NCBI GenBank assembly: GCA_964640965.1
Contig: CAZXJB010000002.1
Coordinates: forward strand, 1 to 46,210
Source: an uncultured Actinomycetes bacterium
GTDB taxonomy: Bacteria > Actinomycetota > UBA4738 > HRBIN12
Length of the DNA: 46,210 nucleotides
Reading direction: 5' to 3'
Under the pieces are notes generated by a model. The model was not told the DNA's origin. It did no database searches and saw only the letters and a program-made list of their open reading frames with translations. Of the stretch, positions 8,311-43,636 are shown in pieces (position 1 is the stretch's first letter; every line of letters starts with the position of its first letter). The position numbers and the translations under genes are program-made.

Positions 8311-8676
8311 GTGCGCACGGAGCTGCTCCTCGGGGACCGCGGGAGCCGCCTGACGGTCCGGGTGGCGGAGACGCGGCGGGAGCGGATGCGGGGTCTGCTG
8401 GGGTCGGTGCCCCTCGCGCCCGGGACCGGGCTCCTCCTCGAGCGGACGCGCTCGATCCACACGGTCGGGATGCGCTGGACGATCACGGTGGGGCTCCTCG
8501 ACCGCGACCTCCGGGTCCTCGCCGTGCTCCGGGTCCCGCCGAACCGGGTGGTGCCGCCTCGGCGCGGGGTCCGGCACGTGCTCGAGCTCGGGCCGGCGGC
8601 GGAGGCGGAGCTCATCGTCGGCGAGGTGCTACGGCCGGCGGGGGAACCGAGGCCGGCCGCCGCGTCAACCCGTTGA
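8311..8676 (+). CDS. DUF192 (COG1430) family protein
   Basis: VAETRRERMRGLLG...GLLLERTRSIHTVGMRWTITVGLLDRDLRVLAV matches the A-x-T...R-x-x-GL...HT-x-GM pattern of DUF192. GTG start. The stop codon lies inside the repeat palindrome. Confidence 0.75.
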   Translation: MRTELLLGDRGSRLTVRVAETRRERMRGLLGSVPLAPGTGLLLERTRSIHTVGMRWTITVGLLDRDLRVLAVLRVPPNRVVPPRRGVRHVLELGPAAEAELIVGEVLRPAGEPRPAAASTR

Positions 8677-8806
8677 CGGCTAGGAGGGGCTCGACGGGTC
8701 TCCCGCGTGAACCCCTTGCCTGGAACGACCGAGGTGTTTCCGGACAAGGGGTTCACACCCACGGCCGTCGGCGGGGCCGGGAGCCGTGAAGGGGTTGACG
8801 GCGGCC
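8660..8806 (+). repeat. 147-bp direct repeat, copy 1 (100% identical to 9379..9525)
   Basis: Base-by-base comparison of the two copies at an offset of 719 bp. Contains palindrome GTCAACCCGTTGAC (8664-8677), a 50-nt imperfect hairpin (8707-8756) and several GGGTT(G/C)AC half-sites. Confidence 0.95.
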
Positions 8807-9253: not shown

Positions 9254-9378
9254 CCTCCTCGCGGAAGATCCCCATCGCCCGCGACGCGCGGCGCGTGATC
9301 CGTCGGCAGCCCCCCAGCAACGACCGCCCAGGCTACACGTCCTACCCCTGCCGCCGAGCGAGCTCCACCTGCTCCCCA

Positions 9379-9525
9379 CCGCGTCAACCCGTTGACGGCT
9401 AGGAGGGGCTCGACGGGTCTCCCGCGTGAACCCCTTGCCTGGAACGACCGAGGTGTTTCCGGACAAGGGGTTCACACCCACGGCCGTCGGCGGGGCCGGG
9501 AGCCGTGAAGGGGTTGACGGCGGCC
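9379..9525 (+). repeat. 147-bp direct repeat, copy 2
   Basis: Identical to 8660..8806. It ends 5 nt before a TATACT box and 38 nt before tRNA-Glu. Confidence 0.95.
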
Positions 9526-9562: not shown

Positions 9563-9635
9563 GCCCCCATCGTCTAGCGGCCTAGGATTTCGCCCTTTCA
9601 AGGCGGCGACACGGGTTCGAATCCCGTTGGGGGCA
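9563..9635 (+). tRNA. tRNA-Glu (anticodon TTC)
   Basis: Acceptor GCCCCCA/TGGGGGC, anticodon arm TCGCC-CTTTCAA-GGCGG, T-loop GGTTCGAATCC. Closely resembles canonical bacterial tRNA-Glu. Confidence 0.9.
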
Positions 9636-9654
9636 CGACAACCGAAGAGCGCAC

Positions 9655-9729
9655 GCGGCTGTGGAGGAGCCTGGAGTCCTCATCGCCCTGTCAAGGCGAA
9701 GATCGCGGGTTCGAAGCCCGTCAGCCGCG
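9655..9729 (+). tRNA. tRNA-Asp (anticodon GTC)
   Basis: Acceptor GCGGCTG/CAGCCGC, D-arm GAGG..CCTC, anticodon arm TCGCC-CTGTCAA-GGCGA, T-arm GCGGG-TTCGAAG-CCCGT. Confidence 0.88.
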
Positions 9730-9733
9730 CGAG

Positions 9734-9806
9734 GGCGAGGTAGCTCAGTTGGCAGAGCACGCGGCTGAAAACCGCGGTGTCGGCGGTTCGATCCCGCCCC
9801 TCGCCA
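9734..9806 (+). tRNA. tRNA-Phe (anticodon GAA)
   Basis: Acceptor GGCGAGG/CCTCGCC, GTAGCTCAGTTGGCAGAGC D-arm, anticodon loop CTGAAAA, T-loop GGTTCGATCC. Confidence 0.9.
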
Positions 9807-11083: not shown

Positions 11084-11596
11084 TCACTCGGACGGTGACG
11101 CGTTCCGGGTGAGAGCGGTACACGACCCGGTGCTCGGTGAGAGGCACGGCTTGCTACCTGACCCCCCCGCCGGGTCCGTCCACGCCGTGTCGCTCGTGAT
11201 CTCGGGTGTAACCCATCCGTCCCCAGGGGGCTTGGATGCGCCGGGCGCCGAAACACCCTTGATCTCGATGGACTCGATGATGAGACGACAAGCTTCATCG
11301 AAGCTCGTCGTGACGCTCACCGAGCCGACGTCCGGATCCGACACATCGGTCCGCACGCCAAGCCCGCCACCGGGGAGCACGCACGACCCACCCGCATCTG
11401 GGATCGCGCCGACGTCGAGCACTTGGCCCTCGTGCACCGACATCCTGCCTGACCGCGGTCCGCCCGTCTGCACGTAGACGGTTACCCCCTTCATGTCAGG
11501 CGCCGCATCCACGGCCCCCCGGACGGGCACTGCGGTGAGCGCTGTGCCGATCAACGCGACACAGGCCCCAGCGGCTGCGGCGATCCACCTCCGCAT
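11084..11596 (-). CDS. secreted hypothetical protein
   Basis: Signal peptide MRRWIAAAAGACVALIGTALTAVPVRGAV; ATG 11596 follows a GGGGGG run. Visibly lower GC3 than its neighbours (codons GGT, GTT, ACA, TCA, GCA, CCT). Confidence 0.55.
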   Translation of the reverse strand: MRRWIAAAAGACVALIGTALTAVPVRGAVDAAPDMKGVTVYVQTGGPRSGRMSVHEGQVLDVGAIPDAGGSCVLPGGGLGVRTDVSDPDVGSVSVTTSFDEACRLIIESIEIKGVSAPGASKPPGDGWVTPEITSDTAWTDPAGGSGSKPCLSPSTGSCTALTRNASPSE

Positions 11597-11783
11597 GCCG
11601 ACCACCCCCCTTCACGGTTCCACTTTGACACTACGTCCCCCCGAGCCTGTCAAGCGTCAGGCTGGCCGCGCACCGATGCCCAAGGACCCCAGGATGCGGC
11701 TTGGGTCGCGATGCGACCCGATGTGTGAAAGGCCGGAACGGGTAGCATCCGCGGAAACGTGGCCGGGTGGGGTACATGGCAGG

Positions 11784-12848
11784 ATGAGCACAGCCGAGCC
11801 GAACGACGGGTTCCCGACGCTGCGGTGCCTCGCGCCCGACGGCTCCCCCGTGGGGGACACCGACGTCGGGCTCTCGGAGGAGGAGCTCCGCGGGCTCCTG
11901 CGCTGGATGCTCCTCGCCCGGCGCCTGGACCGCGAGTGCATGGCGCTCCAACGCCAGGGCGAGCTCACGGTCTACCCGCCCTTCGAGGGGCAGGAGGCGG
12001 CCCAGGTGGGGAGCGCCGCGGCGCTCGGGCCGCGGGACATGGTCTTCCCCTCGTTCCGGGAGCTCGCCGCCGCGATCGTCCGCGGCGTCGACGCCGTCAC
12101 CTACCTGCAGTACCACCGCGGGACCTGGCACGGCGGCCCGTACGACCCGATCGCGACCGGGTTCGCGCCGATCTGCGTCCCCGTCGCCACGCAGATCGTG
12201 CACGCCGTCGGGTGGGCGCTCGGGGCCAAGCTCGACGGCCGCGACGCGTGCGCGCTCGCGTACTTCGGCGACGGCGCGGCCTCCGAGGGCGACTTCCACG
12301 AGGCGGCGAACCTCGCCGCGGTCTTCCGGGTCCCGGCGGTGCTCCTCTGCCAGAACAACGGCTGGGCGATCTCGGTGCCCTCGCGCGAGCAGTTCGCGGC
12401 ACCGATCGCCGCCCGCGCGGCGGGCTACGGCATGCCAGGGGTCCGCGTGGACGGCAACGACGTGCTCGCGGTCTACCGGGCGACGCGGGAGGCGGTCGAG
12501 CGGGCCCGCGCCGGCGAGGGCCCGAGCCTCATCGAGGCCCTCACCTACCGGGTCGGGCCCCACACGACGGCCGACGACCCCTCGCGGTACCGGGACGAGG
12601 CCGAGGTCGAGCGCTGGCGGGCGCTCGACCCGATCGAGCGGTACCGGCGGTACCTCGAGCGCTCCGGCCTCGCCGACCCCGGGTTCGCCGCGGCGTGCGA
12701 GGCCGAGACCGAGGAGTGGGTCGGCCGGGTCCGGGCCGAGCTCGTCGCGCTCGGGGCGCCGCCCGCCTCGGAGGTCTTCGACCACGTCTTCGCCGACCCC
12801 CCGGCGAGCCTGCTGCGGCAGCGGGCGGAGGCGCTCGGCGATGCCTGA
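11784..12848 (+). CDS. 2-oxoacid dehydrogenase E1 component alpha subunit (TPP-dependent; BCKDH/PDH type)
   Basis: MSTAEPNDGFPTLRCLAPDG...YFGDGAASEGDFHEAANLAAVFRVPAVLLCQNNGWAIS is the TPP-binding signature. In frame with track ORF 11493..12848; ATG 11784 chosen. Confidence 0.9.
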   Translation: MSTAEPNDGFPTLRCLAPDGSPVGDTDVGLSEEELRGLLRWMLLARRLDRECMALQRQGELTVYPPFEGQEAAQVGSAAALGPRDMVFPSFRELAAAIVRGVDAVTYLQYHRGTWHGGPYDPIATGFAPICVPVATQIVHAVGWALGAKLDGRDACALAYFGDGAASEGDFHEAANLAAVFRVPAVLLCQNNGWAISVPSREQFAAPIAARAAGYGMPGVRVDGNDVLAVYRATREAVERARAGEGPSLIEALTYRVGPHTTADDPSRYRDEAEVERWRALDPIERYRRYLERSGLADPGFAAACEAETEEWVGRVRAELVALGAPPASEVFDHVFADPPASLLRQRAEALGDA

Positions 12849-13815
12849 GGTCACGATGGTGGCCGCGCTCAACGCGGCGCTCCGGGACGCCCTCGCCGCC
12901 GATCCCCGCGTGCTCGTCTTCGGCGAGGACGTCGGGGAGCTCGGGGGCGTGTTCCGGGTCACCCAAGGACTCCAGGAGGCGTTCGGGCGCGAACGGGTCT
13001 TCGACACGCCGATCTCCGAGTCCGGCATCGCGGGGATGTGCGTCGGCCTGGCGATGGCCGGCTGGCGCCCGGTCGCCGAGATGCAGTTCGACGGCTTCAG
13101 CTACCCCGCCCTCGACCAGATCATCAGCCACGTCGCGAAGTACCGGGAGCGGACGCGGGGCCGCGTGGGGATGCCGGTCACGATCCGGATCCCATCCTTC
13201 GGCGGGATCCGGGGCAAGGAGCACCACGGCGAGAGCCCGGAGACGTACTACGTCCACACCGCCGGGCTGAAGGTCGTCGCGCCCTCGGACCCGCTCGACG
13301 CGTACCGACTGCTGCGGCTCGCGATCGCCGACCCCGACCCGGTCATCGTGCTCGAGGCGAAGTCCCGCTACTGGTCGAAGGCCACGGGCGAGCTCACGAC
13401 CGACGGCCCGGGCATCGGCCGGGCGCGCGTGCTGCGCGAGGGCTCCTCGTGCGTGCTCGTCTCCTACGGCGCGATGGTGGCCCGCTGCCTCGAGGCCGCG
13501 GCCGCGCTCGAGGCCGAGGGCATCTCCTGCACGGTCCTCGACCTGCGCTCGCTCTCACCCCTGGACCTCGAGACGCTCGGCGAGGCCGTGCGCGCCGTCG
13601 GCCGGGCGGTCGTGGTCCACGAGGCCCCGCTCACGCTCGGCCTCGGCGCCGAGGTCGCGGCCCGGATCATGGAGGAGGCCTTCGACCACCTCGAGGCCCC
13701 GGTCCGCCGCGTGACGGGCTTCGACGTGCCGTACCCGCCCGCCTCGCTCGAGGGGGTCTACCTGCCGAGCGTCGAGCGGATCGCCCGCGCGGTCAGGGAG
13801 GTCGTGGCGTACTGA
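12841..13815 (+). CDS. 2-oxoacid dehydrogenase E1 component beta subunit
   Basis: VTMVAALNAALRDALAADPRVLVFGEDVG..GGVFRVTQGL...FDTPISESGIAG. Its start overlaps the alpha-subunit stop by 8 nt. Confidence 0.93.
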   Translation: MPEVTMVAALNAALRDALAADPRVLVFGEDVGELGGVFRVTQGLQEAFGRERVFDTPISESGIAGMCVGLAMAGWRPVAEMQFDGFSYPALDQIISHVAKYRERTRGRVGMPVTIRIPSFGGIRGKEHHGESPETYYVHTAGLKVVAPSDPLDAYRLLRLAIADPDPVIVLEAKSRYWSKATGELTTDGPGIGRARVLREGSSCVLVSYGAMVARCLEAAAALEAEGISCTVLDLRSLSPLDLETLGEAVRAVGRAVVVHEAPLTLGLGAEVAARIMEEAFDHLEAPVRRVTGFDVPYPPASLEGVYLPSVERIARAVREVVAY

Positions 13816-15023
13816 TGGCCGAGCGCGTCTTCCGCCTGCCGGACCTCGGCGAGGGTCTCGAGGAGGCCGAGATCGCGAGCTGGCTCGTGGCCGAGGGGGA
13901 CGAGGTCGCGCTGAACCAGCCCCTCGTCGAGGTCGAGACCGCGAAGGCCGTCGTCGAGATCCCCTCGCCGGTCGCCGGGCGCGTGACCCGGCTCCACGCC
14001 GCCGTCGGCCAGGCGATCCGGGTACGTGAGCCGCTCGTCACGTTCGAGGCCGAGGAGGCGGGCGGGGGCGCCGGGGCTCCGCTCCCGGGGCCCCGGCGCG
14101 ACGCCGGAACGGCCGAGCCCACCACCGGAGGGCACGGCGTCGCGCCGCCCGACCCGCTCCGCCCCGGCGCCCCCGCCGCTGCCACCCCCGCGGTCCGCGC
14201 GCTCGCCAAACGCCTCGGCGTGGACCTCGCGTCCGTCCGCGGTACCGGCCCCGGCGGGCGCATCACGCGGGAGGACGTCGAGGCCGCCGCCCGCACCGCC
14301 GGGCCCGGGGCCGGCCCCGAGGCGGAGGCCGTCGCCCCCGCCGCGGCCGAGGTCGAGGTCCTTCCGATCTCGCCCGTGCGCCGCGCGATCGCCGAGAACC
14401 TGGCCCGGGTCGTCCGCGAGGTGCCCCAGGTCACGACCTGGCGCACGGTCGACTGCACGGCGCTCGAGGCCTTCCGCGCCGAGCTCGGCCTCTCGCCCCT
14501 GCCGATCCTCGTGCGGGCCCTCGCCGAGATCTGCCGCGACCACCCCTTCTTGAACGGCTCCTACCGGGCCGACCTCGGCGAGATCCACCTGCACCGCCGG
14601 GTCCACGTCGGCATCGCCACGGACACCGAGCGCGGCCTCCTCGTGCCCGTCGTCCGGGACGTCGGCGCGCTCGGCATCGGCGAGGTCGCCGCGGAGATCG
14701 CGCGGCTGGCCGAGGCCGCCCGCGCCGGCCGCCTCGCCCCCGCGGACATGGCGGGCGGCACGATCACCGTCACCAACACCGGCTCCTACGGCTCGGAGGC
14801 CGGCACGCCCATCCTCAACCCGCCGCAGGGAGCGATCCTCGCGCTCGGCGCCATCCGGCCCCGGGCGCTCGTCGTCGAGGGACGCGTCGAGGCCCGTCCC
14901 GCCTGCACCCTCAGCCTCACCTTCGACCACCGCCTCCTCGACGGGGCCACCGCGGGCCGGGCGCTCGGCGCCCTCGTCGACCTCCTCGAGGACCCCGAGC
15001 GCCTGCGGGCGCTGCCCCGCTGA
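13815..15023 (+). CDS. dihydrolipoamide acyltransferase E2
   Basis: Lipoyl domain [20 protein letters not shown]...[15 protein letters not shown], subunit-binding domain [33 protein letters not shown], and catalytic [13 protein letters not shown]. The ATG overlaps the E1-beta TGA. Confidence 0.92.
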
Positions 15024-19603: not shown

Positions 19604-20503
19604 CTACCCGGCCCGGGAGGCCTCGCCGAGGCCCTCGGCCACCCACTCGCCCTCGGCGGCCTCGAGGCGGTCCCGCCAGGTGCTGCTCGTCGCGAGCAGC
19701 CCGAAGAACGCGGCGCGGCTGCGCTTGCCGGGGGCGTTCTCCGGCACCTCGGGGACGCCCTCGTAGAGCGTGCCGAGGTACGCGCGGAGGGCGTTGATGG
19801 CCTCCGAGCAGATCTGCGAGACCCTGGCCTCCGTCACCCCGAGGTCCTCGGCGATCTCGCGGAGCATCTCGCCGCCGAGGTAGTAGCGCTCGATCACGGT
19901 CCGCTGGGTCGGAGGGAGGTTCCGCACGGCGGTGCGGAGGGTGCCGATCAGCTCGCGGCGCTCGAGCGCCTCCTCGGGCAGGATCTCGGAGCTCGTCTCC
20001 TGGATCTGCTCGGCGAGCGAGCCGTCCTCGTCCTCGTAGGAGTGGTCCAGGTGCAGCAGGGTCGCGCGCTCCACCGAGGCGCGCAGCTCGCGGAGCTCCT
20101 CCACCCCGATCCCGAGCTCGGCGGCGATCTCCTCGTCCCGGGCGGCGCGCCCGTGGCGCTCCTCCAGCCGCTCCTCGACGCGACGCAGGTCTCTCGCGCT
20201 GCGGCGGAGGGCGCGGGCGGCCCAGTCGCGGTCCCGGGTCGAGTCGATGATCGCCCCGCGGATCCGCACCATGGCATATCGCGGGAAGGGGACGCCCATC
20301 TCCGGCCGGTAGCGGTTGGCGGCCTCCACGAGCCCGCGGGCCCCGGCGTTCCAGAGCTCCTGTCGGTCGACGTGCCGCGGGTAGCGGGCTGAGACCTGGT
20401 TCACGACGTGCTGGACGAGGTCGAGGTTGGCGAGGATCAGCGACTCCGGCGTCGCGCCGTCGGTGGCTCCGGTCGCGACGTGACCGCGAAGGTTCCGCTC
20501 CAC
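19604..20503 (-). CDS. fliA: flagellar sigma factor, FliA/WhiG (sigma-28) family, with a ~50-aa C-terminal extension
   Basis: Region 2 is NLDLVQHVVNQVSARYPRHVDRQELWNAGARGLVEAANRY...PFPRYAMVRIRGAIID. Region 4 is LPPTQRTVIERYYLGGEMLREIAEDLGVTEARVSQI. GTG start with GAGGGGGG SD. Confidence 0.9.
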   Translation of the reverse strand: MERNLRGHVATGATDGATPESLILANLDLVQHVVNQVSARYPRHVDRQELWNAGARGLVEAANRYRPEMGVPFPRYAMVRIRGAIIDSTRDRDWAARALRRSARDLRRVEERLEERHGRAARDEEIAAELGIGVEELRELRASVERATLLHLDHSYEDEDGSLAEQIQETSSEILPEEALERRELIGTLRTAVRNLPPTQRTVIERYYLGGEMLREIAEDLGVTEARVSQICSEAINALRAYLGTLYEGVPEVPENAPGKRSRAAFFGLLATSSTWRDRLEAAEGEWVAEGLGEASRAG

Positions 20504-20745: not shown

Positions 20746-20773
20746 CTTCAGCGGCGCCAGGGTCCGCCGACGG
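20746..20773 (+). promoter_or_regulatory. sigma-28-type promoter candidate upstream of the M15 peptidase gene
   Basis: CTTCAG-N14-GCCGACGG, ending 9 nt before ATG 20783. One member of the nine-site motif family. Confidence 0.6.
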
Positions 20774-20782
20774 GACCAGCGT

Positions 20783-21346
20783 ATGGACGCCCTCGGCGCG
20801 ATCGGCGGGGTCCTCGGGCGGGTGGAGCAGATCGAGGCGATGGCGGCGAACCTGGCCTCGAGCTTCGCGACCGCGCTCGCGCAGGCAGAGCGGACCCTCG
20901 CCCTCGCCCCGACACGAGCGCTCGCGCCCGCGCCAAGGGGCCTGCTCCCCGACACGGGGTCGTACGGCGTCTCGACCTCGGGTCCGCCGCTGCCCGAAGG
21001 CCTCACGCCCGAGCTCGTGTCCTGGCGCGGCGTTATCCTGAACCCCGCCGCGATGGCGAGCCTCCAGGAGGCCTCGCGCTCCCTCGGTTCCCCGATCCGC
21101 GTCACCGACTCCTACCGCAGCCACGCGCAGCAGGCGGCGGCCTACGCGCGCAAGCCGGGCCTCGCCGCGCCACCGGGCTCGAGCTACCACGAGCGGGGGC
21201 TCGCGATCGACGTGGACGGGGATGCCTACGGCGGCTACGCGAGCGCGGCGTTCCGGCGCGTGGTCGAGGTCTTGGAGTCCCTCGGGTGGCACCGCTTCGA
21301 CCCGCAGGGCGAGCCGTGGCACTTCTCGTACCTGGTGACCGGCTGA
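20783..21346 (+). CDS. peptidase M15 (VanY / D-Ala-D-Ala carboxypeptidase-like LAS metallopeptidase)
   Basis: The C-terminal half, PIRVTDSYRSHAQQ...APPGSSYHERGLAIDV...GWHRF.....EPWHFSY, matches the H-x6-D...H zinc-ligand layout of VanY/M15. ATG 20783 lies in frame within track ORF 20408..21346. Confidence 0.8.
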   Translation: MDALGAIGGVLGRVEQIEAMAANLASSFATALAQAERTLALAPTRALAPAPRGLLPDTGSYGVSTSGPPLPEGLTPELVSWRGVILNPAAMASLQEASRSLGSPIRVTDSYRSHAQQAAAYARKPGLAAPPGSSYHERGLAIDVDGDAYGGYASAAFRRVVEVLESLGWHRFDPQGEPWHFSYLVTG

Positions 21347-21361: not shown

Positions 21362-21607
21362 TCAGCCGTCCGACGGAGCCTGCGGCTTCCGCGCCCGACG
21401 GAGCACCGGGGAGTCGCGGTCGGCGGAGGCCACGGCCGCCGCGTTCTCCCGCATGACCTCGAGGTAGACCTCCTCGCGGTGCACGCTCACGGACCTCGGC
21501 GCGTCGATCCCGAGGCGGATGTGGTCGGGCCGGACCTCGAGGACGGTCACGACGATGTCGTTGCCGATGATGATGGACTCGCCCTGCTTCCGAGACAGGA
21601 CCAGCAT
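21362..21607 (-). CDS. csrA: carbon storage regulator CsrA
   Basis: MLVLSRKQGESIIIGNDIVVTVLEVRPDHIRLGIDAPRSVSVHREEVY is a near-canonical CsrA core. Overlaps the fliW stop. Confidence 0.93.
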   Translation of the reverse strand: MLVLSRKQGESIIIGNDIVVTVLEVRPDHIRLGIDAPRSVSVHREEVYLEVMRENAAAVASADRDSPVLRRARKPQAPSDG

Positions 21608-22032
21608 CAGCCCGCCACCAGCTTCACCGGGGCCCGCACCGGGTAGCTCGAGTCCGACAGGATGACCTGCCGGCCCCGCCTCGTCTCGGCGTTCACCACG
21701 AACGGGGCGAGCAGGTTCAGGTACACGGTCTCGCGCTCGGCGTCGAGCGTCACCGCGCAGAAGACGATCGCGTCCTCCCGGCGCTCGATCCCGAGGGACG
21801 CCCGCTCCAGCTCCGACAGCTCCGGCGCGTAGTCCGGGAAGAAGAGCCAGGGCACGGTGACGAGGAGGGCGACCTCGGGCTCATCGAGGCTCTGCAGCAG
21901 CTGGAAGACCGAGTCCTCCGCGACCTCGACGAGGACGAACCGGCGCGAGCCCGGGAAGCCCGGGATCCCGTCCTCGAAGGTGAGGACGTGCTCCTGTCCG
22001 ATCAGATCCCGTTCGCTCGTCAGCGTCGCCAC
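21607..22032 (-). CDS. fliW: flagellar assembly factor FliW (CsrA antagonist)
   Basis: LTFEDGIPGFPGSRRFVLVEV..DSVFQLLQSLDEPEVALLVTVPWLFFPDY...YLNLLAPFVVN..TRRGRQVIL. GTG 22032 lies in frame within track ORF 21607..22494. Confidence 0.88.
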   Translation of the reverse strand: MATLTSERDLIGQEHVLTFEDGIPGFPGSRRFVLVEVAEDSVFQLLQSLDEPEVALLVTVPWLFFPDYAPELSELERASLGIERREDAIVFCAVTLDAERETVYLNLLAPFVVNAETRRGRQVILSDSSYPVRAPVKLVAG

Positions 22033-22055
22033 CCGGCCCCCTCGGTCGCCCCAGG

Positions 22056-22940
22056 TTAGCGCAGGAAGTCCACGAGCGAGGGCTGGAGGACCTGGGACAT
22101 CGCTCCGAGCGTCGCCCGGTAGGCGACCTCCTGGAGCTGGAGCTCCATGACGGCCTCGGCGAGGTCCGCGTCCTCGATGCCCGAGAGCTCGCCGGTCAGC
22201 GCCAGCTGCTCGTCGGCGAGCCGAGCCTGCGCCCGCTCGATCCGGTTGCCGGCGGCCCCGATCTCGGCGAGCCCGTCGAGCACCCGGCCGAGGGCCGCGT
22301 CGACCTCGCCGATGGCCGCCCCCACCGCTCCCGCGTCGCCCGCCGTCACGAGCGAGGCGAGGTCCTCGAGCATCGTGAAGACGTCCCGCCCGGCGGTGAA
22401 CCCGAAGACCTCGTCGGCCGTGACGCTCACCGTCACGTCCTCGCCGTCCCCGACGCGACGCACCACGCGTGTCCCGTCGCCGGTGTACGTCCACGTCCCG
22501 CCCACGTTCGTCACCGCCGGCGAGGTGGCCGTCCCGGCGAACAGGCCCTGCTCGCCGTTCCGCGCATTGGCGATGGCCACGAGCCCGTCCCGGATCGACC
22601 CCAGCTCCGCGGCGATCGCCGCCCGCTCGGTCGGCGAGGTCGTGGAGGCGGCGCGCACGGCGAGCTCGCGGGCCCGCTGGAGGCTGTCCGCGGCCGCGCG
22701 CAGCTGCGAGTCCGCGAGCGCGACCCAGGTCGCGCCGTCCTGCGCGTTGCGCGCGTGCTGCTCCTTGGCCCGCTGCAGGGCCCGCAGGCCGAGCACGCTG
22801 CTCATCCGACCAGGATCGTCCGACGGTCGACGCACGACCTTGCCCGACGACAGGCGCACCTGCGCCGCCTGGAGCTGGGCCAGGCGGACGCGCAGGCGCT
22901 CCAGCGAGTCCTGCACGAGCATCCCCTGCGTGATGCGCAT
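22056..22940 (-). CDS. flgL: flagellar hook-associated protein 3 (FlgL)
   Basis: MRITQGMLVQDSLERLRVRLAQLQAAQVRLSSGKVVRRPSDDP is a flagellin-like N-terminus, with C-terminus AYRATLGAMSQVLQPSLVDFLR. Located downstream of flgK. Confidence 0.88.
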   Translation of the reverse strand: MRITQGMLVQDSLERLRVRLAQLQAAQVRLSSGKVVRRPSDDPGRMSSVLGLRALQRAKEQHARNAQDGATWVALADSQLRAAADSLQRARELAVRAASTTSPTERAAIAAELGSIRDGLVAIANARNGEQGLFAGTATSPAVTNVGGTWTYTGDGTRVVRRVGDGEDVTVSVTADEVFGFTAGRDVFTMLEDLASLVTAGDAGAVGAAIGEVDAALGRVLDGLAEIGAAGNRIERAQARLADEQLALTGELSGIEDADLAEAVMELQLQEVAYRATLGAMSQVLQPSLVDFLR

Positions 22941-22947
22941 CCTGTGG

Positions 22948-24315
22948 CTACCTCCCCACGAGACCGGTCCGGTTGATCAGCACGTCGAGCGCCTCGTCGA
23001 CGACGCTCATCAGGCGCGCCGCCGCGTCGAAGGCGTGCCGCGCCTCGATGAGCGCGGTCATCTCCTCGTCGAGCGAGACCCCGTGCTCGCCCTGGCGCGC
23101 GAGCTCCGCCGCGGCCGTGAGCTGCCGCTGGGTCTCCGTCGCGCGAAGGGCTCCGGCGACGGTGGCGCCGAGGCCCACCGCGAGGGCTCGCGCGGCGCCC
23201 CCCAGCGTGTCGGTGCCGCCCGAGGCCGCGAGGGCGGTCCGCAGGCCTGCGAGGGCTCGGGCGTTCTCGCCGTTGAAGGCGGGGAACGGCGGTCCCGGCT
23301 GCGAGGAGGCCGCGAGCTGCGACGGGTCGGAGATCGCGACCTGCAGCGTGCGGGCCGCGTCCCCCGGCGTGTACGAGAGCAGCGCTCCGCCGGGGGTCGA
23401 GTCCGAGACCCAGCCGGCCTGGTGCTGGGCGTTCAGCGCCTCGGCGAGGTCCTGGGCGAAGGCGTCGAGATCCGCACGGAGGCTCGGGAGGTCCTCGAGC
23501 AGGAAGCGGCGATACCCCCCGATCTCGCCCCCGGGCGCGAGGCTCGCGCCGGTCGCCGCATCGACGAGATCGAAGGAGGCTGTGAGCTGGACCGTCGTCG
23601 CGACGGTCCCGTCGACGAGCCCCATGCCGCCCACGCTCACACGCACCGTCCCGTCCTCCTGCGGGATCGCCCGGGCTCCGATGAGCACGGCCAGCCGGTC
23701 CACCAGGGCGTCGCGCTGGTCGAGGAGGGTCCCGTCCGGCTGCCCGGTGGGCGTGGCCACGATCGCGCGGTTCACGTCCGCCACCGACCGCAGGAGGTCG
23801 TTCACCTCGTCGACGCGCGTCTGCAGGGTGGTCGCGGCGTCGCGCTCGAGGGCGTCCCAGGCGCCCGCGACCGCCCGGATCCGAGCGGTCACGTCCCGCA
23901 GGGCGTTCAGGACGGTGATCCGGGTCCCGGAGCTCGTCGGAGAGAGCGCCAGCTCCTCGAAGGCCGCCCAGAGCTCGGCGAGGGGCGCGGAGATCCCCTG
24001 GTCGGGCTCGGCCAGGGCGGCCTCGGCCCGCTGCAGCAGCTCGGCTCGCACCGACAGCTGCCCCAGGAGATCCTGGCCGCCCCGGACGCGGGCATCCAGG
24101 AACAGGTCTCGCGTCCGCGCGATGGCCGCGACGTCCACCCCGCCCCCCATCCACCCCTCGGCGCTGAGGTAGGAGGGCGCGGGGACGAGCTCCACGCGCC
24201 GGCGCGTGTACCCGGGGGTCGCCGCGTTCGCCACGTTCCCGGCGGCGGTGTCGATGCGGACCCTCGCCGCCCGCAGGGCCGTGAGCGCCGTGTTCAGCGA
24301 GACGAAGTCGGCCAC
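22948..24315 (-). CDS. flgK: flagellar hook-associated protein 1 (FlgK)
   Basis: FVSLNTALTALRAARVRIDTAAGNVANAATPGYTRRRVEL at the N-terminus and GVSLDEEMTALIEARHAFDAAARLMSVVDEALDVLIN at the C-terminus. Confidence 0.9.
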   Translation of the reverse strand: MADFVSLNTALTALRAARVRIDTAAGNVANAATPGYTRRRVELVPAPSYLSAEGWMGGGVDVAAIARTRDLFLDARVRGGQDLLGQLSVRAELLQRAEAALAEPDQGISAPLAELWAAFEELALSPTSSGTRITVLNALRDVTARIRAVAGAWDALERDAATTLQTRVDEVNDLLRSVADVNRAIVATPTGQPDGTLLDQRDALVDRLAVLIGARAIPQEDGTVRVSVGGMGLVDGTVATTVQLTASFDLVDAATGASLAPGGEIGGYRRFLLEDLPSLRADLDAFAQDLAEALNAQHQAGWVSDSTPGGALLSYTPGDAARTLQVAISDPSQLAASSQPGPPFPAFNGENARALAGLRTALAASGGTDTLGGAARALAVGLGATVAGALRATETQRQLTAAAELARQGEHGVSLDEEMTALIEARHAFDAAARLMSVVDEALDVLINRTGLVGR

Positions 24316-24321
24316 CCGCCC

Positions 24322-24834
24322 TCAGAGCTCCCGATCGACGCGGGCGGGCCTCGGGACGACCGGCTCCCGACGACCCGAGGGGTCGTAGGTGTCCCCCACC
24401 TCGTCACCGACGAGGGCGTCGAGGTTCTCGCGGACGTGCTCGGCGGCGGCCGCCGCAACCCGGCGGTTCTCCGCCGCGACCTCCTCAATCTCCTCGACGA
24501 GCTTGCGGAAGCCATCGCGGTGCTCCCGGAACATCGTGGCCGCCGGCTCCGGCGCGTGCTCGGCGAGGTAGGAGAGGCTGAGCCGCTCCGCCGGCACCCC
24601 CCACTCCTCCGCCAGGCGCGCGACGGCGGTCGCCCGCAGCAGCTCCGCCTCGCGCAACCGCTCGATCGCGATCTCGACCTCACCGAGGGCGGGGGTCACG
24701 AAGGCCCGCGCGTCGGCAGCGAGCACCAGCCGCGCCGTCACGAGCTTGAACAGCAGGAACTCCAGGAGGTGCCGCTCGGCCCAGAGCCGCTGCATGAGCT
24801 CGTGCAGGCCCTCGGAGGGAGGATGCCGGCCCAT
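24322..24834 (-). CDS. flgN: FlgN-like flagellar export chaperone (assigned by position, size and helical character)
   Basis: 170-aa helical protein immediately upstream of flgK (LHELMQRLWAERHLLEFLLFKLVTARLVL). ATG 24834 lies in frame at the tail of artefactual track ORF 24322..25986. Confidence 0.6.
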   Translation of the reverse strand: MGRHPPSEGLHELMQRLWAERHLLEFLLFKLVTARLVLAADARAFVTPALGEVEIAIERLREAELLRATAVARLAEEWGVPAERLSLSYLAEHAPEPAATMFREHRDGFRKLVEEIEEVAAENRRVAAAAAEHVRENLDALVGDEVGDTYDPSGRREPVVPRPARVDREL

Positions 24835-24841
24835 GTCAGCC

Positions 24842-24869
24842 CCGTCGGCCGGTCGGGGACGGTCTGAAG
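24842..24869 (-). promoter_or_regulatory. sigma-28-type promoter candidate for flgN-flgK-flgL-fliW-csrA
   Basis: The minus strand reads CTTCAG-N14-GCCGACGG-GGCTGAC-ATG, which implies a leaderless or near-leaderless transcript. Confidence 0.55.
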
Positions 24870-24923: not shown

Positions 24924-25084
24924 GAGTAGGGTACGGTGGACGGTGGGTCCGCCTCGCGGGCCGGTGCGCGGGGTCCGGGCGTCGATCGGGGGTGATCGCA
25001 ACGCCGAGGAGAGGCAGGTCCGATCGTCCGGGCGATGCGGCCGCCGAAGGAACCCCCGAGGCGGAAGCCCGGGACGAAGGCGAG

Positions 25085-25651
25085 GTGGAGCGGCTCCGTG
25101 CGGAGCTCCGCCGCCTGACCGAGGAGATCGGGTTCCTCCGCCTGCAGCTCGACACGCTCACGACGATCGACCCGACGACCGGCCTCCTCAACCGGAACGG
25201 CTTCGTCGAGGCCATCGAGATGGCGCTGCAGCGCCTCGACCGTCTCGCGGAGCCCTTCGCGCTCACCGGTGTGTACCTGCCCGGGCTGCCCGAGCTCATG
25301 GCCCCCGACCCCGACCGGGCTCCCGAGGTGCTCCGCCACGTGGCCGCGCTGCTCGCGGCCTGCGTCCGCAGCCTCGACCGGGTGGCGCGCCTGGACGAGC
25401 GCACGTTCGCCGTGATCGCCCCGACGGTCTCGCGCCGCGACCACCTCGTGCAGCTGAACCGTATCCGGAGCGTGCTCACGGCCGCGGCGGTGGTCCCCGA
25501 AGAGCTCGGCGACCGCGAGCTCGACGTGCGCTTCGCGGTGGTGGTCGTCGAGGCCGTCGGCGAGCACGGCCCCGAGGACGTGCTCCAGGCGCTCATCGAG
25601 GCGCTGCGACGGGCCCGACCCGACCGCCCCGAGCTCGTGCTCAGGCCGTGA
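25085..25651 (+). CDS. coiled-coil + degenerate GGDEF domain protein (active site DERTF, I-site RSLD retained)
   Basis: DPTTGLLNRNGFVEAIEMAL...VLRHVAALLAACVRSLDRVARLDERTFAVIAP aligns position-for-position with the PleD-type VLREVARRL..VRAIDLPCRYGGEEFVVIMP (recalled from memory). GTG 25085 (GAAGG SD, and GC3 rises here) is preferred; GTG 24992 is possible. The 3' end overlaps the fliH 3' end by 11 nt (convergent). Confidence 0.7.
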   Translation: MERLRAELRRLTEEIGFLRLQLDTLTTIDPTTGLLNRNGFVEAIEMALQRLDRLAEPFALTGVYLPGLPELMAPDPDRAPEVLRHVAALLAACVRSLDRVARLDERTFAVIAPTVSRRDHLVQLNRIRSVLTAAAVVPEELGDRELDVRFAVVVVEAVGEHGPEDVLQALIEALRRARPDRPELVLRP

Positions 25652-31198: not shown

Positions 31199-32029
31199 CT
31201 ACCGCAGCAGCTGGAGGACGGACTGCGGGACCACGTTGGCCTGCGCGAGCATCGCCGTGCCGGCCTGGAGCATGATCTGGTGGCGGGTGAAGCTCGCCAT
31301 CTCCAGGGCCATGTCCGTGTCGCGGATCCGCGACTCGGAGGCCGAGAGGTTCTCCAGGGCGACGTTGAGGTTGGCGATCACGTGCTCGAGCCGGTTCTGG
31401 GTGGCCCCGAGGGTCGCCCGCACGCTCGAGACGTCGGCGATCGCGGTGTCCAGGGTCGAGATCGCCGTCTCGGCGTCGGTCGTGACGTCCACGCCGGTGA
31501 GGTCCACCGAGAAGATCCCGGCCGCCCCGGTCGTGTCGATCTGCAGGTCGTCCGCGATCACGAGCTGGTGGTTGGCGCCCGAGCCCGGCCCGACGTGGAA
31601 CACGAGGTTCGTGCTCGAGTAGTCCTGGAACACCGCCGAGCCCGCGAAGGTCGTGCGGGCCCCGATCGCCGAGAGCTCGGTGACGAGCTCGTCGATCTCG
31701 GCCTGCTGGGCCGTCCCGTCGGTGGTGGCGGTGTTGGCCGCCGAGACCGCGAGGTCGCGCATCCGCTGCAGGATCGCGTGGACCTCGTTCAGCGCGCCCT
31801 CGGCCGTCTGGACGAAGCTGATGCCGTCCTGGGCGTTCTGGACCGCCTGGCGGGTGCCGCCGATCTCGGCCCGCAGGCTCTCGGACTTGACCAGGCCGGC
31901 CGCGTCGTCGGCCGCCCGGTTGATCCGGAAGCCGCTCGACAGCTTCTCCAGGGACTTGGAGAGCTGCGTGGTCGTCACGGCGAGGTTGCGGTACGCGTTG
32001 AACGCCGCGACGTTCTGGTTGATGCGCAT
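31199..32029 (-). CDS. fliC: flagellin, copy 1
   Basis: MRINQNVAAFNAYRNLAVTTTQLSKSLEKLSSGFRINRAADDAAGL ... ASFTRHQIMLQAGTAMLAQANVVPQSVLQLLR. Confidence 0.95.
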   Translation of the reverse strand: MRINQNVAAFNAYRNLAVTTTQLSKSLEKLSSGFRINRAADDAAGLVKSESLRAEIGGTRQAVQNAQDGISFVQTAEGALNEVHAILQRMRDLAVSAANTATTDGTAQQAEIDELVTELSAIGARTTFAGSAVFQDYSSTNLVFHVGPGSGANHQLVIADDLQIDTTGAAGIFSVDLTGVDVTTDAETAISTLDTAIADVSSVRATLGATQNRLEHVIANLNVALENLSASESRIRDTDMALEMASFTRHQIMLQAGTAMLAQANVVPQSVLQLLR

Positions 32030-32033
32030 CTCC

Positions 32034-32042
32034 CACCTCCTT
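32034..32042 (-). promoter_or_regulatory. fliC Shine-Dalgarno AAGGAGGTG (candidate CsrA site 2)
   Basis: The minus strand reads ACAAGGAGGTGGGAG-ATG, so a GGA motif lies within the SD. Confidence 0.6.
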
Positions 32043-32059
32043 GTCGCATCGGCGCATCA

Positions 32060-32083: not shown

Positions 32084-32111
32084 CCGTCGGCGGGGGTCGG
32101 TGGGGGTTAAG
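32084..32111 (-). promoter_or_regulatory. sigma-28-type promoter candidate, fliC copy 1
   Basis: The minus strand reads CTTAAC-N14-GCCGACGG, 55 nt upstream of the fliC ATG. Confidence 0.65.
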
Positions 32112-32639: not shown

Positions 32640-33470
32640 CTACCGCAGCAGCTGGAGGACGGACTGCGGGACCACGTTGGCCTGCGCGAGCATCGCCGTG
32701 CCGGCCTGGAGCATGATCTGGTGGCGGGTGAAGCTCGCCATCTCCAGGGCCATGTCCGTGTCGCGGATCCGCGACTCGGAGGCCGAGAGGTTCTCCAGGG
32801 CGACGTTGAGGTTGGCGATCACGTGCTCGAGCCGGTTCTGGGTGGCCCCGAGGGTCGCCCGCACGCTCGAGACGTCGGCGATCGCGGTGTCCAGGGTCGA
32901 GATCGCCGTCTCGGCGTCGGTCGTGACGTCCACGCCGGTGAGGTCCACCGAGAAGATCCCGGCCGCCCCGGTCGTGTCGATCTGCAGGTCGTCCGCGATC
33001 ACGAGCTGGTGGTTGGCGCCCGAGCCCGGCCCGACGTGGAACACGAGGTTCGTGCTCGAGTAGTCCTGGAACACCGCCGAGCCCGCGAAGGTCGTGCGGG
33101 CCCCGATCGCCGAGAGCTCGGTGACGAGCTCGTCGATCTCGGCCTGCTGGGCCGTCCCGTCGGTGGTGGCGGTGTTGGCCGCCGAGACCGCGAGGTCGCG
33201 CATCCGCTGCAGGATCGCGTGGACCTCGTTCAGCGCGCCCTCGGCCGTCTGGACGAAGCTGATGCCGTCCTGGGCGTTCTGGACCGCCTGGCGGGTGCCG
33301 CCGATCTCGGCCCGCAGGCTCTCGGACTTGACCAGGCCGGCCGCGTCGTCGGCCGCCCGGTTGATCCGGAAGCCGCTCGACAGCTTCTCCAGGGACTTGG
33401 AGAGCTGCGTGGTCGTCACGGCGAGGTTGCGGTACGCGTTGAACGCCGCGACGTTCTGGTTGATGCGCAT
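32640..33470 (-). CDS. fliC: flagellin, copy 2 (identical protein)
   Basis: The 276-aa translation is identical to 31199..32029. Confidence 0.95.
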   Translation of the reverse strand: MRINQNVAAFNAYRNLAVTTTQLSKSLEKLSSGFRINRAADDAAGLVKSESLRAEIGGTRQAVQNAQDGISFVQTAEGALNEVHAILQRMRDLAVSAANTATTDGTAQQAEIDELVTELSAIGARTTFAGSAVFQDYSSTNLVFHVGPGSGANHQLVIADDLQIDTTGAAGIFSVDLTGVDVTTDAETAISTLDTAIADVSSVRATLGATQNRLEHVIANLNVALENLSASESRIRDTDMALEMASFTRHQIMLQAGTAMLAQANVVPQSVLQLLR

Positions 33471-33500
33471 CTCCCACCTCCTTGTCGCATCGGCGCATCA

Positions 33501-33516
33501 CCGACCTCCGTGTCGG
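33501..33516 (-). promoter_or_regulatory. 5'-leader GGA hairpin, fliC copy 2
   Basis: Repeat copy of 32060-32075. Confidence 0.5.
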
Positions 33517-33524
33517 CAGGTGGC

Positions 33525-33552
33525 CCGTCGGCGGGGGTCGGTGGGGGTTAAG
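33525..33552 (-). promoter_or_regulatory. sigma-28-type promoter candidate, fliC copy 2
   Basis: Repeat copy of 32084-32111. Confidence 0.65.
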
Positions 33553-33572
33553 GGGGGTGAAGGCCGGAGGCG

Positions 33573-33600
33573 CTTCACCGGCGAGGTTCGCGGCCGACCG
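33573..33600 (+). promoter_or_regulatory. sigma-28-type promoter candidate for the HD-GYP gene
   Basis: The plus strand reads CTTCAC-N14-GCCGACCG, ending 10 nt before ATG 33611. The -35-like box lies inside the 1045-bp repeat and the -10-like box lies outside it. Confidence 0.55.
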
Positions 33601-33610
33601 GCAGGAGCGG

Positions 33611-38437: not shown

Positions 38438-39481
38438 TCACATCACCCCCCGCCGCCGGCGCCGGTAGGCGATCGCGATCACCACGGCGACGGCCTCGTA
38501 CAGGGCGGGCGGCACGAAGCGCCCCACGCGGCACCGGCGGTACAGCTCGCGGGCGAGCGGCGGATCCTCCCGGATCATCACGCCGTGGCGCGCGGCCAGC
38601 CGCCGCAGCTTCAGCGCGAAGCGCCCGGCGCCCTTGGCGACGACCCTCGGCGCCGGCTCACCGGGGGTGTACCGGAGGGCGACCGCGAGGTGCGTGGGGT
38701 TCGTCACGACCACGTCCGCGGTCGTCACCTCCACGAGCATCCGGTTCCGCGACAGCTCCCGGTGACGCCGGCGCCGATGCATCCGCACGAGGGGATCCCC
38801 CTCCATCTCCTTGTGCTCCTGCTTCAGCTCCTGGCGGGTCATGCGCTGGGCCCGCTCGGTGCGCACCCGGGCCACCACGTAGTCGGCCGCGGCGATCAGC
38901 GCCACGAGGAACGCGACCCGCACGAGGATCGTCCAGCCCCGGGCGCCGGCGAGCGCGAGCCACTCGGGGAGGCTCCGCGCGCGGGTCGCCTCGCCCACCA
39001 CGTCGCGGATGGGCGCCCACACGACGGCGACGAGCAGCCCGACCTTCAGCGCCGCGCGCCCCGCCTCCCACCCGAGGTTCGAGGGCCGCAGGCGCTCCAG
39101 CCCCTGACGCGGCGACAAGCGGGAGAGCTTCGGCGTGAGCGCGCCCGGGGCGAGCAGGAACCCGGTCTGGACCACCCCGCCCGCCACCCCGAGGGCGAGG
39201 GCGAGGGCGAGGAACGGCAGGACCGCCCCACCGAGCATGTCGAGGACCACGTCGCGGACGTGCGAGGGTGGCGGCTCGAGCGCCGAGATCCGCAGCAGCT
39301 CCCGCGTGCCGAGCGCGAGCTCGCGGCCGGCCGCCGGGAGCAACGTCCGGGCAGCGATCGCCGCGCCGAGCAGGGAGACCGCCGCCCCCACCTCGGGGCT
39401 GCGTGCGACCCGCCCCTCCCGCCGGGCCCGTCGTTTGGCTCTCGGTGTCGGCTTCTCGGTGCGGCCGTCGAACCGGCCCAC
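38438..39481 (-). CDS. flhB: flagellar export apparatus protein FlhB
   Basis: GRTEKPTPRAKRRARREGRVARSPEV at the N-terminus and the autocleavage motif VVVTNPTHLAVAL. GTG 39481 after GGAGGGA is preferred; the upstream 49 codons of the track ORF have poor GC3. Confidence 0.9.
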   Translation of the reverse strand: MGRFDGRTEKPTPRAKRRARREGRVARSPEVGAAVSLLGAAIAARTLLPAAGRELALGTRELLRISALEPPPSHVRDVVLDMLGGAVLPFLALALALGVAGGVVQTGFLLAPGALTPKLSRLSPRQGLERLRPSNLGWEAGRAALKVGLLVAVVWAPIRDVVGEATRARSLPEWLALAGARGWTILVRVAFLVALIAAADYVVARVRTERAQRMTRQELKQEHKEMEGDPLVRMHRRRRHRELSRNRMLVEVTTADVVVTNPTHLAVALRYTPGEPAPRVVAKGAGRFALKLRRLAARHGVMIREDPPLARELYRRCRVGRFVPPALYEAVAVVIAIAYRRRRRGVM

Positions 39482-43609: not shown

Positions 43610-43636
43610 CGTCGGCTGTCCGGAGCCACGCTCAAG
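43609..43636 (-). promoter_or_regulatory. sigma-28-type motif between fliL and fliM
   Basis: The minus strand reads CTTGAG-N14-GCCGACGG. The -10-like box abuts or overlaps GTG 43609. Confidence 0.4.

Follow-up and report, generated by a model that had tools for sequence, protein, structure and literature searches.

A Signal-Less M15 Peptidase with Sigma-28-Type Promoter Boxes as a Candidate Flagellum-Associated Wall Enzyme in an Uncultured Actinomycetes Bacterium

Introduction

This study concerns a peptidase gene in a flagellar gene cluster of an uncultured Actinomycetes bacterium, the genome of which (G000) comprises 2.3 Mb in 141 contigs, has a G+C content of 74%, and is 95.7% complete. 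The DNA analyzed, referred to here as the window, is the entire contig C2 with its 46,210 bases. The gene (P0002; 20783..21346 on the forward strand, from the ATG at 20783 to the TGA ending at 21346, stop included) encodes a 187-residue M15B/VanY-like protein that, judged by its sequence and by structural models, is a good candidate for an enzyme that helps the flagellum to work in a thick Gram-positive wall. The reading that we favor, to which we give about an even chance on the whole of the analysis, is that of a sigma-28-dependent wall peptidase that is exported through the flagellum and acts beside the SLT enzyme of the cluster, in the manner of CwlQ of Bacillus subtilis but cutting peptides.

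The question addressed is how the flagellar rod passes the thick Gram-positive wall and turns within it. Two concrete candidates that track flagella emerge from this work, namely, an SLT enzyme from the rod/hook operon and the M15 peptidase, which has no signal and whose gene carries sigma-28-type boxes; their N-terminal motifs are alike. Should the peptidase exit through the flagellum, no other enzyme that cuts peptides would be known to have left that way before, and the rod-in-wall question would become testable in cultivable actinobacteria that possess an ortholog.

Promoter of the peptidase gene

Boxes of the sigma-28 (FliA/WhiG1) type, CTTCAG-N14-GCCGACGG, are located directly upstream of the peptidase gene at 20746..20773 on the forward strand: CTTCAG at 20746-20751 is followed after 14 nucleotides by GCCGACGG at 20766-20773, and a further 9 nucleotides lead to the ATG. 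A first-pass annotation of this DNA had reported this arrangement and had stated that flgN possesses the same boxes; both sites were located, that of flgN at 24842..24869 on the reverse strand, 7 nucleotides before its ATG. The same annotation had let the peptidase gene start at 20746, which is the position of the first promoter box; the gene begins at 20783. There is also an alternative, longer frame from an in-frame GTG at 20408, upstream of the ATG, but the ATG is favored because the GTG version overlaps the divergent sigma factor gene, because the orthologs begin at the ATG, and because the conserved boxes stand just upstream of it.

Sites of the form CTTAAC-N14-GCCGACGG precede the two flagellin (fliC) genes of the window, at 32084..32111 for copy 1 and, in identical form, at 33525-33552 for copy 2, both on the reverse strand. 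When the whole genome was scanned with the pattern CTT[CA]A[GC]-N14-GCCGACGG, exactly four sites were found in 4.6 million positions, as compared to 0.42 expected from the box counts. All four are intergenic and lie just before late flagellar genes, namely, the two copies of fliC, flgN, and the peptidase gene. As a control, the spacer was varied from 8 to 23 nucleotides, which gave 0 to 2 hits each, except for the in-frame spacers of 12 (5 hits) and 18 (3 hits) nucleotides, the hits of which are scattered across other contigs and appear to be intragenic. Conservation follows the boxes: in two related contigs with 79-80% protein identity (L027 and L028), the two boxes and the sequence from the second box to the ATG are conserved, whereas the spacer and the upstream DNA have diverged. 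According to the available text of PMC12871210, the actinobacterial sigma-28 consensus sequences are CTCA-N16-17-GCCGAACT and T(A/C)AA-N16-GCCGATAA; written as CTTC-N16-GCCGA, the peptidase site matches this published consensus in its GCCGA core and in its spacing (PMC12871210). From the sequence we infer that the peptidase gene belongs to the sigma-28 (FliA/WhiG1) regulon, together with typical late flagellar genes, and its mRNA is probably leaderless or nearly so. The DNA upstream of the peptidase gene of a second flagellated genome (G249, see below), read by eye, showed no clear box pair, and no site was counted there.

Related sequences occur at two other places in the window. A CTTGAG-N14-GCCGACGG site at 43609-43636 on the reverse strand is located at the end of fliL and ends at the GTG listed as the start of fliM; it may be an internal sigma-28-type promoter. 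Furthermore, a direct repeat of 150 nucleotides with 99% identity (8657-8806 and 9376-9525, 719 nucleotides apart), near three tRNA genes (9563-9806), contains CTTCAC-N13-GCCGACGG on the minus strand of each copy, and no convincing open reading frame (ORF) lies between the copies.

Fold and active site

The assignment to the M15/VanY family made in the first-pass annotation was borne out by the match to Pfam VanY (PF02557; E value of 4.7e-7, 30.1 bits against a cut-off of 25, residues 90-184), and the motifs that had been named, SYRSHAQQ, SSYHERGLAIDV, and EPWHFSY, are all present in the protein. A profile of 21 relatives matched solved chains of VanY, VanXY, Ply500, LysB4, and LdcB/DacB, the best being 5hnm (E value of 9.1e-10). 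The AlphaFold2 model, built with 77 sequences, has a mean predicted local distance difference test (pLDDT) score of 92.4, and its best Foldseek matches are VanXYc (4oak; E value of 2e-6), BaLdcB (4jid), and VanYB (5hnm). The Foldseek probability was 1.00 for VanXYc, BaLdcB, VanYB, and DacB, and phage L-Ala-D-Glu peptidases were matched as well.

The protein consists of three parts. Residues 1-40 (20783..20902, forward strand) form an N-terminal module with small non-polar residues at positions 3-7 and, in the model, a single long helix from residue 2 to 40 that carries R13, F28, and L32. Residues 41-58 (20903..20956, forward strand) are a Pro/Ala-rich linker that lacks secondary structure in the model and contains the block of lowest confidence (mean pLDDT of 61 for residues 41-50). 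Residues 59-187 (20957..21343, forward strand) are the compact LAS/VanY catalytic domain, which holds R112, S134, H136, D143, E177, and H180. Of these residues, E177 is nearly invariant and the other five are invariant in the 77 relatives. The alignment to VanY 5hnm spans the SxHxxGxAxD and ExWH motifs, and the zinc ligands H136, D143, and H180 line up, as does the catalytic E177; the Arg and Gln residues by which carboxypeptidases bind their substrate are also kept. Since both the fold and the catalytic residues are intact, the protein looks active, and it is predicted to be an intact, catalytically competent VanY/M15B zinc peptidase. Searches with Pfam revealed neither an SLT domain nor a wall-binding domain such as LysM or SH3 in the peptidase, and residues 1-85 gave no Pfam hit at E values up to 1 and no NCBIfam family.

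These similarities bear on a rival explanation, in which the protein is not exported but stays in the cytoplasm as a VanXY-like D,D-dipeptidase or pentapeptidase that trims D-Ala-D-Ala or UDP-MurNAc-pentapeptide in motile cells, altering the cross-linking of new wall. The top Foldseek matches are VanXYc chains, which are signal-less, and the peptidase likewise shows no signal for a general export pathway; the substrate-binding Arg and Gln are retained, and one source labels a fragment "D-alanyl-D-alanine dipeptidase". The nearest relatives of the catalytic domain, however, are wall-lytic modules, found in fusions to TadE/G-like pilins (L021, P0040, and G440), at the C termini of proteins of 2,004 and 2,494 residues, and in the PHROG endolysin and tape-measure families. 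The 40-residue N-terminal module and the linker are not found in VanXY, the docking of this module to FlhB of the export apparatus (see below) has weak support from a predicted complex, and the editing of precursors offers no evident reason to track flagella. A cytoplasmic role appears quite unlikely to us.

The phage-like relatives also raise the possibility that the gene is a leftover lysin of a phage or mobile element that stands beside fliA by chance, with a box pair that is a chance match. Besides the PHROG endolysin and tape-measure matches, this explanation can draw on the closest non-syntenic relative (L013, 52% identity), which adjoins a RusA gene. Against it stand the box pair, which is found genome-wide only before flagellar genes and is conserved in relatives, catalytic residues that are intact at 54-92% identity, the co-occurrence with flagella in two lineages described below, and the window itself, in which Pfam scans revealed no phage genes around the peptidase gene. 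A phage remnant is extremely improbable.

VanY-type domains fused to TadE/TadG-like pilin N termini were seen in other Actinomycetota (L021, 9413-10282; L048, 6721-7389; P0040), and these fusions could be wall peptidases that are carried by the Tad pilus system.

N-terminus and export features

As in the first-pass annotation, no signal peptide was seen in the protein: the top 17-residue Kyte-Doolittle mean ahead of the domain is 1.18, and residues 2-40 are a helix in the model. The corresponding values of 16 orthologs range from 0.99 to 1.84, with a single one barely at 1.8, as compared to a hydrophobic N-terminal segment in 44 of 139 other relatives, which is also present in the G091 copy located beside ftsX.

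Across the 16 orthologs, no residue at positions 1-53 is invariant apart from R13, F28, and L32. The N-terminal tip carries the small non-polar residues A-L-G-A-I at positions 3-7, and F28-A-T-A-L32 follows about 20-24 residues later as a short motif that starts before residue 30. In the available text of PMC8983047, early substrates of the Salmonella flagellar export system are described as having an N-terminal hydrophobic signal of small non-polar residues and a gate recognition motif, such as 36-FLTLL-40 in FlgD, that docks on the cytoplasmic domain of FlhB (FlhBc), and the two signals need to be at least 19 residues apart (PMC8983047). In its sequence, the N terminus of the peptidase has features that resemble these signals of early substrates. 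In the source genome, an F-x-x-x-hydrophobic motif is present in FlgD (F32), FlgE (F41), and FliE (F26), and none was found in the first 70 residues of FlgK, FlgL, FliD, and FliC.

Similar N termini were noticed in other proteins. Read by eye, a pattern of h-x-x-R-(V/I)-x-x-I and, 10-30 residues later, F-x-x-x-(L/M) opens the peptidases of G249, of G237, and of the family of G249, as well as the SLT proteins of G000, G249, and G237; the orthologs of the G249 family retain R-I-x-x-I ... F-x-x-(I/A)-L. A profile built from mixed peptidase and SLT N termini was dropped as circular.

The proposed docking site is the cytoplasmic domain of FlhB (144 residues with the NPTH motif; 38441..38872, reverse strand; Pfam Bac_export_2). 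A complex of FlhBc (alignment of 29 rows) with residues 1-60 of the peptidase (16 rows) was predicted with scores of 0.49, 0.51, and 0.48, compared to 0.00 for three controls; at least 61% of the contacts agreed between the runs, and the pLDDT of the partner was at least 54. Of 157 solved complexes, 116 attain the score mark, as do 2 of 215 mismatched pairs, counts that hold only roughly for custom alignments such as these; at scores of 0.60 or below, it is reached by only 18 of the 157 solved complexes and by both passing mismatches. The models thus give weak support to a docking of the N-terminal module on FlhBc.

Distribution among flagellated genomes

A search of 5.8 billion proteins returned about 16 full-length orthologs of the peptidase with 54-92% identity, all of which are metagenome-derived records; the matches beyond these are to the catalytic domain only. 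When genome contigs were searched with the single sequence of the peptidase, no relative was found, and the search with an alignment found relatives of the catalytic domain only. The gene order is kept in three related contigs: two 16-kb contigs (79-80% identity) have the order sigma, peptidase, FliW, FlgL, FlgK, GGDEF, FliH, and FliG, and a 3.2-kb contig (63% identity) has the order peptidase, FlgL, and FlgK as far as it reaches.

In the sample of 101 genomes of the same order, FlhA was detected in only one, G000 itself, which is also the only genome with a full-length peptidase; the best other match (3.9e-22) is confined to the catalytic domain. The flagellar cluster of G000 may have been acquired, or it may have been lost almost everywhere else in the order. 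In the phylum sample, FlhA was above the cut-off in 54 of 401 genomes and a VanY domain was present in 130 of 401. The order-sample peptidase tallies and the phylum VanY tallies include genomes flagged as unpublished, and no specific claim rests on them.

Among the other genomes of the phylum sample, the flagellar apparatus closest to that of G000 is that of G249, which belongs to a different family (FlhB, 56% identity; FliC, 70%; sigma factor, 56%), and that of G237 is distant (FlhB, 38%; sigma factor, 28%). In both genomes, a VanY gene that lacks a signal peptide directly adjoins the sigma factor gene of the flagellar cluster: in G237, it follows the sigma factor gene on that gene's strand; in G249, the two genes are convergent, and fliC is next. 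Within the family of G249, FlhA is present in 7 of 56 genomes, and a close ortholog of the G249 peptidase (E value of 1e-53 or better) was found in 6 of the 7 flagellated genomes and in 1 of the 49 others; since kin are not independent, no P value is attached to these counts. Co-occurrence with flagellar genes, a check proposed in the first-pass annotation, is supported in part, in that the presence of the peptidase tracks flagella in two separate lineages, and it is not general across the phylum sample.

A fourth case was considered and rejected. In G440, only 2 kb separate a VanY gene from a gene for a FliA-like sigma factor, but the VanY gene encodes a TadE-like membrane protein beside gyrA, and no flagellar gene is present within 7 kb. 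Flagellated genomes provided seven further VanY loci (L042-L047 and L049), and none of these showed a flagellar gene within about 7 kb.

Other wall hydrolases of the genome

It had been stated that no FlgJ-like gene is visible. This is true for the window, but it is not true for the genome, which encodes an SLT lytic transglycosylase on contig C31. In G000, the Rod-binding domain (PF10135) had no match at E values up to 0.1 and the glucosaminidase domain (PF01832) none above the cut-off, its sole hit below the cut-off being elsewhere than in the peptidase. The one clear SLT domain is part of a 440-codon frame located between fliJ and flgD in the rod/hook operon, and an SLT gene is also found inside the flagellar clusters of G249 and G237. 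Because the genome encodes this enzyme, the peptidase would be at most a second enzyme, and the suggestion that it replaces the FlgJ muramidase is not supported. The more specific role in rod penetration that had been suggested is likewise not supported, as the promoter is of the class of late genes, a timing that fits Bacillus CwlQ better than FlgJ.

The SLT frame itself (L037, 1711-3030, reverse strand) joins an N-terminal SLT domain to a C-terminal part. The latter has a homolog (E value of 6e-10) in G249, where it is an ORF of its own next after the SLT gene, at the position of fliK. The frame may be an SLT-FliK-like fusion or may have lost a stop codon.

Gene neighborhood

As had been noted, the peptidase gene lies between fliA and csrA, which was confirmed with Pfam. 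The fliA-type sigma factor gene (19604..20503, reverse strand) encodes Sigma70 regions 2, 3, and 4, is divergent from the peptidase gene, and is 55.6% identical to the sigma gene of the G249 flagellar cluster. On the other side, the CsrA gene (21362..21607, reverse strand; Pfam E value of 2.3e-25), to which FliW, FlgL, and FlgK are next, belongs to a flgN-flgK-flgL-fliW-csrA string (21362..24834, reverse strand; Pfam) that is convergent with the peptidase gene. The identity of FlgN is backed by Pfam (E value of 1.9e-13); as the first gene after its promoter, flgN occupies the position that flgM has in Bacillus.

The window contains, on the reverse strand and by Pfam, motA, motB, fliL, fliM, a fliO-like gene, fliP, fliQ, an ORF at the position of fliR that has no Pfam match, flhB, flhA, and one gene of no known type. 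These are followed by an HD-domain gene on the forward strand; by fliC, fliS, fliC, fliD, fliF, fliG, and fliH on the reverse strand; by a GGDEF gene on the forward strand; by flgN, flgK, flgL, fliW, and csrA on the reverse strand; by the peptidase gene on the forward strand; and by the three-region sigma factor gene, purF, purM, and a response regulator gene on the reverse strand. The remaining flagellar genes, flgB, flgC, fliE, fliI, fliJ, the SLT-domain gene, flgD, and flgE, are located on contig C31.

The two flagellin genes (31199-32056 and 32640-33497, reverse strand) flank fliS, have equal Pfam scores and identical upstream regions, and each leader has ACGGAGG before the start, as expected for control by CsrA/FliW. 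An HD_5-domain (HD-GYP-like) gene (33464-35140, forward strand) and a weak GGDEF gene (24992-25651, forward strand) are encoded on the opposite strand within the flagellar cluster, which hints at control by cyclic di-GMP. Genes for 2-oxoacid dehydrogenase components recur near the peptidase: at three loci of the G249 family (L081, L082, and L085), the peptidase ortholog is divergent from and adjoins an E1 gene, and E1 and E2 genes are present in the window at 11478-15023, 6-9 kb from the peptidase gene.

Discussion

The favored reading can be set out as three steps, each of which remains conditional. FliA-RNA polymerase would transcribe the peptidase gene from CTTCAG-N14-GCCGACGG as a nearly leaderless message, alongside flagellin and flgN-flgK-flgL-fliW-csrA. 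In the absence of a Sec or Tat signal, the helix of residues 1-40 with R13...F28-x-x-x-L32 would dock on FlhBc, and the docked peptidase would leave the cell by way of the type III export channel of the flagellum. Once past the membrane, its LAS domain would act on the wall near the basal body, cutting stem peptides or cross-links, and, together with the rod/hook SLT lytic transglycosylase, let the rod sit and turn in the thick wall.

A number of observations weigh against this proposal. VanXYc, a cytoplasmic enzyme, is among the best structural matches, and the substrate residues of the carboxypeptidase type are kept; a carboxypeptidase would not open the mesh of the wall. The F-x-x-x-L motif is short and located at residue 28, at least 30 residues into the protein being its place in the rod and hook subunits of Salmonella according to the available text of PMC8983047, and it is a feature of early substrates, yet the gene has a late-class promoter. 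The similarity between the N termini of peptidase and SLT protein is significant only in G237 (BLASTP E value of 9e-6, compared to 0.02 in G249 and 22 in G000), and a profile of peptidase N termini misses the SLT protein among 18,041 ORFs (among the matches listed, E values of at least 1), as does the reverse search. In a quick tree, thin at 169 catalytic domains and 116 columns, the domains of the G000 group and those of G237/G249 fall into different well-supported clades, which points either to repeated origins of the flagellar link or to an exchange of the domain.

The distribution contributes further points of this kind. In the cross-tabulation, at least 15 of the 53 other flagellated genomes of the phylum sample have a VanY match, and among the matches listed, only those of G249 and G237 are less than 40 kb from flhA. 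In the three next-closest flagellar systems (G224, G463, and G253), the flagellar cluster does not include a VanY gene. Within the G249 family, G495 keeps the peptidase gene and lacks FlhA, the flagellated G479 lacks the peptidase gene, and in G500 and G506 the gene is 115-125 kb from flhA. At six ortholog loci of this family, the flanks of 1.5 kb on each side revealed no flagellar gene, and five of the six have housekeeping neighbors; the flanks of the sixth (L086) gave no Pfam hits.

Such loci fit co-regulation over a structural link and agree with another rival explanation, that of a sigma-28-dependent autolysin outside flagellar assembly, similar to LytC, LytD, or LytF of Bacillus, which in motile cells would serve to remodel the wall or to split it, for cell separation or turnover, and would use a non-flagellar export route. 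The promoter class is that of late genes, and SigD-dependent autolysins are a known class, according to the available text of a preprint (bioRxiv 10.1101/2021.01.13.426625). This explanation has to contend with the 16 orthologs, in none of which a signal peptide or membrane anchor was seen, set against the segment present in 44 of 139 other relatives, and with the lack of any LysM- or SH3-like wall-binding domain in the peptidase, and it leaves the conserved N-terminal motif without a role. We regard it as rather unlikely, and export through the flagellum remains the reading that we favor.

One additional reading concerns the control of the sigma factor. No FlgM (PF04316) was detectable in G000, and none was above the cut-off in G237, G249, G222, G191, and G388, the last of which gave one sub-threshold hit; the available text of PMC12871210 describes the flagellar WhiG1/FliA clade as one whose regulator is not known. 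The peptidase shares several traits with FlgM, namely, a sigma-28-type promoter, the absence of a signal, a helical N terminus, and, in three lineages, a location directly beside the sigma gene. It is conceivable, though very improbable, that in flagellated Actinomycetota it doubles as a secretion-coupled brake on sigma-28, its helix holding FliA until the protein is exported through the finished basal body to work on the wall.

Comparison with known systems

Literature searches turned up no report of an M15/VanY enzyme as part of a flagellar regulon; the supplementary tables of predicted WhiG targets of PMC12871210, which were outside the search, might list one. The words transglycosylase and peptidase do not appear in the main text, as available, of a 2023 survey of actinobacterial flagella (PMC10746217).

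The closest parallel is CwlQ (YjbJ) of B. subtilis. According to the available text of the report on it, CwlQ is SigD dependent, is secreted by the flagellar type III system by means of its N-terminal domain, and is needed for swarming and not for assembly (bioRxiv 10.1101/2021.01.13.426625). Like the peptidase in the reading favored here, it is a small wall hydrolase that lacks a Sec signal, has a promoter of the flagellar sigma factor, and is connected with motility in a Gram-positive wall, and its N-terminal domain is described there as poorly conserved. CwlQ, however, belongs to the SLT lytic transglycosylases and cleaves glycan strands, whereas the peptidase is an M15B zinc enzyme of a class that cuts peptide bonds; and export and phenotype have been shown for CwlQ, whereas the peptidase is known from its sequence and from models. 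The CwlQ-like partner in G000 is probably the SLT gene on contig C31. The precedent of CwlQ removes the objection that a sigma-28 promoter would act too late for a flagellar wall enzyme, and it is also a warning that an enzyme of this type could be dispensable.

FlgJ of Salmonella and other beta- and gammaproteobacteria resembles the peptidase in its layout, with an N-terminal part for flagellar targeting and export and a C-terminal wall hydrolase; FlgJ is exported by the type III system, and export is proposed for the peptidase. The latter has neither the Rod-binding domain nor the glucosaminidase domain and belongs to the M15 class instead, and flgJ is a gene of an early operon, whereas the peptidase gene has late-class boxes. 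SltF of Rhodobacter and PleA of Caulobacter are likewise separate wall hydrolases dedicated to a flagellum that crosses the envelope. They are flagellar lytic transglycosylases that cleave glycan, in contrast to the peptide-cutting class of the peptidase, and SltF is exported by Sec and recruited by FlgJ.

The M15B D,D- and L,D-carboxypeptidases VanY, VanXY, and LdcB/DacB share the fold, the zinc ligands, and the catalytic Glu with the peptidase. VanY and LdcB are membrane anchored or Sec secreted and VanXY is cytoplasmic; they function in vancomycin resistance or the trimming of stem peptides, and the N-terminal module of the peptidase is present in none of them. To our knowledge, none of these enzymes belongs to a flagellar regulon. 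The M15 modules of phage tape-measure proteins and endolysins and of TadE/G-like pilins, finally, are the nearest relatives of the catalytic domain and offer a parallel for a peptidase that goes along with a machine as it crosses the wall. In those cases, the module is fused to a phage tail or Tad pilin or is carried by one, whereas the peptidase described here is a stand-alone protein with a flagellar-type promoter and N terminus.

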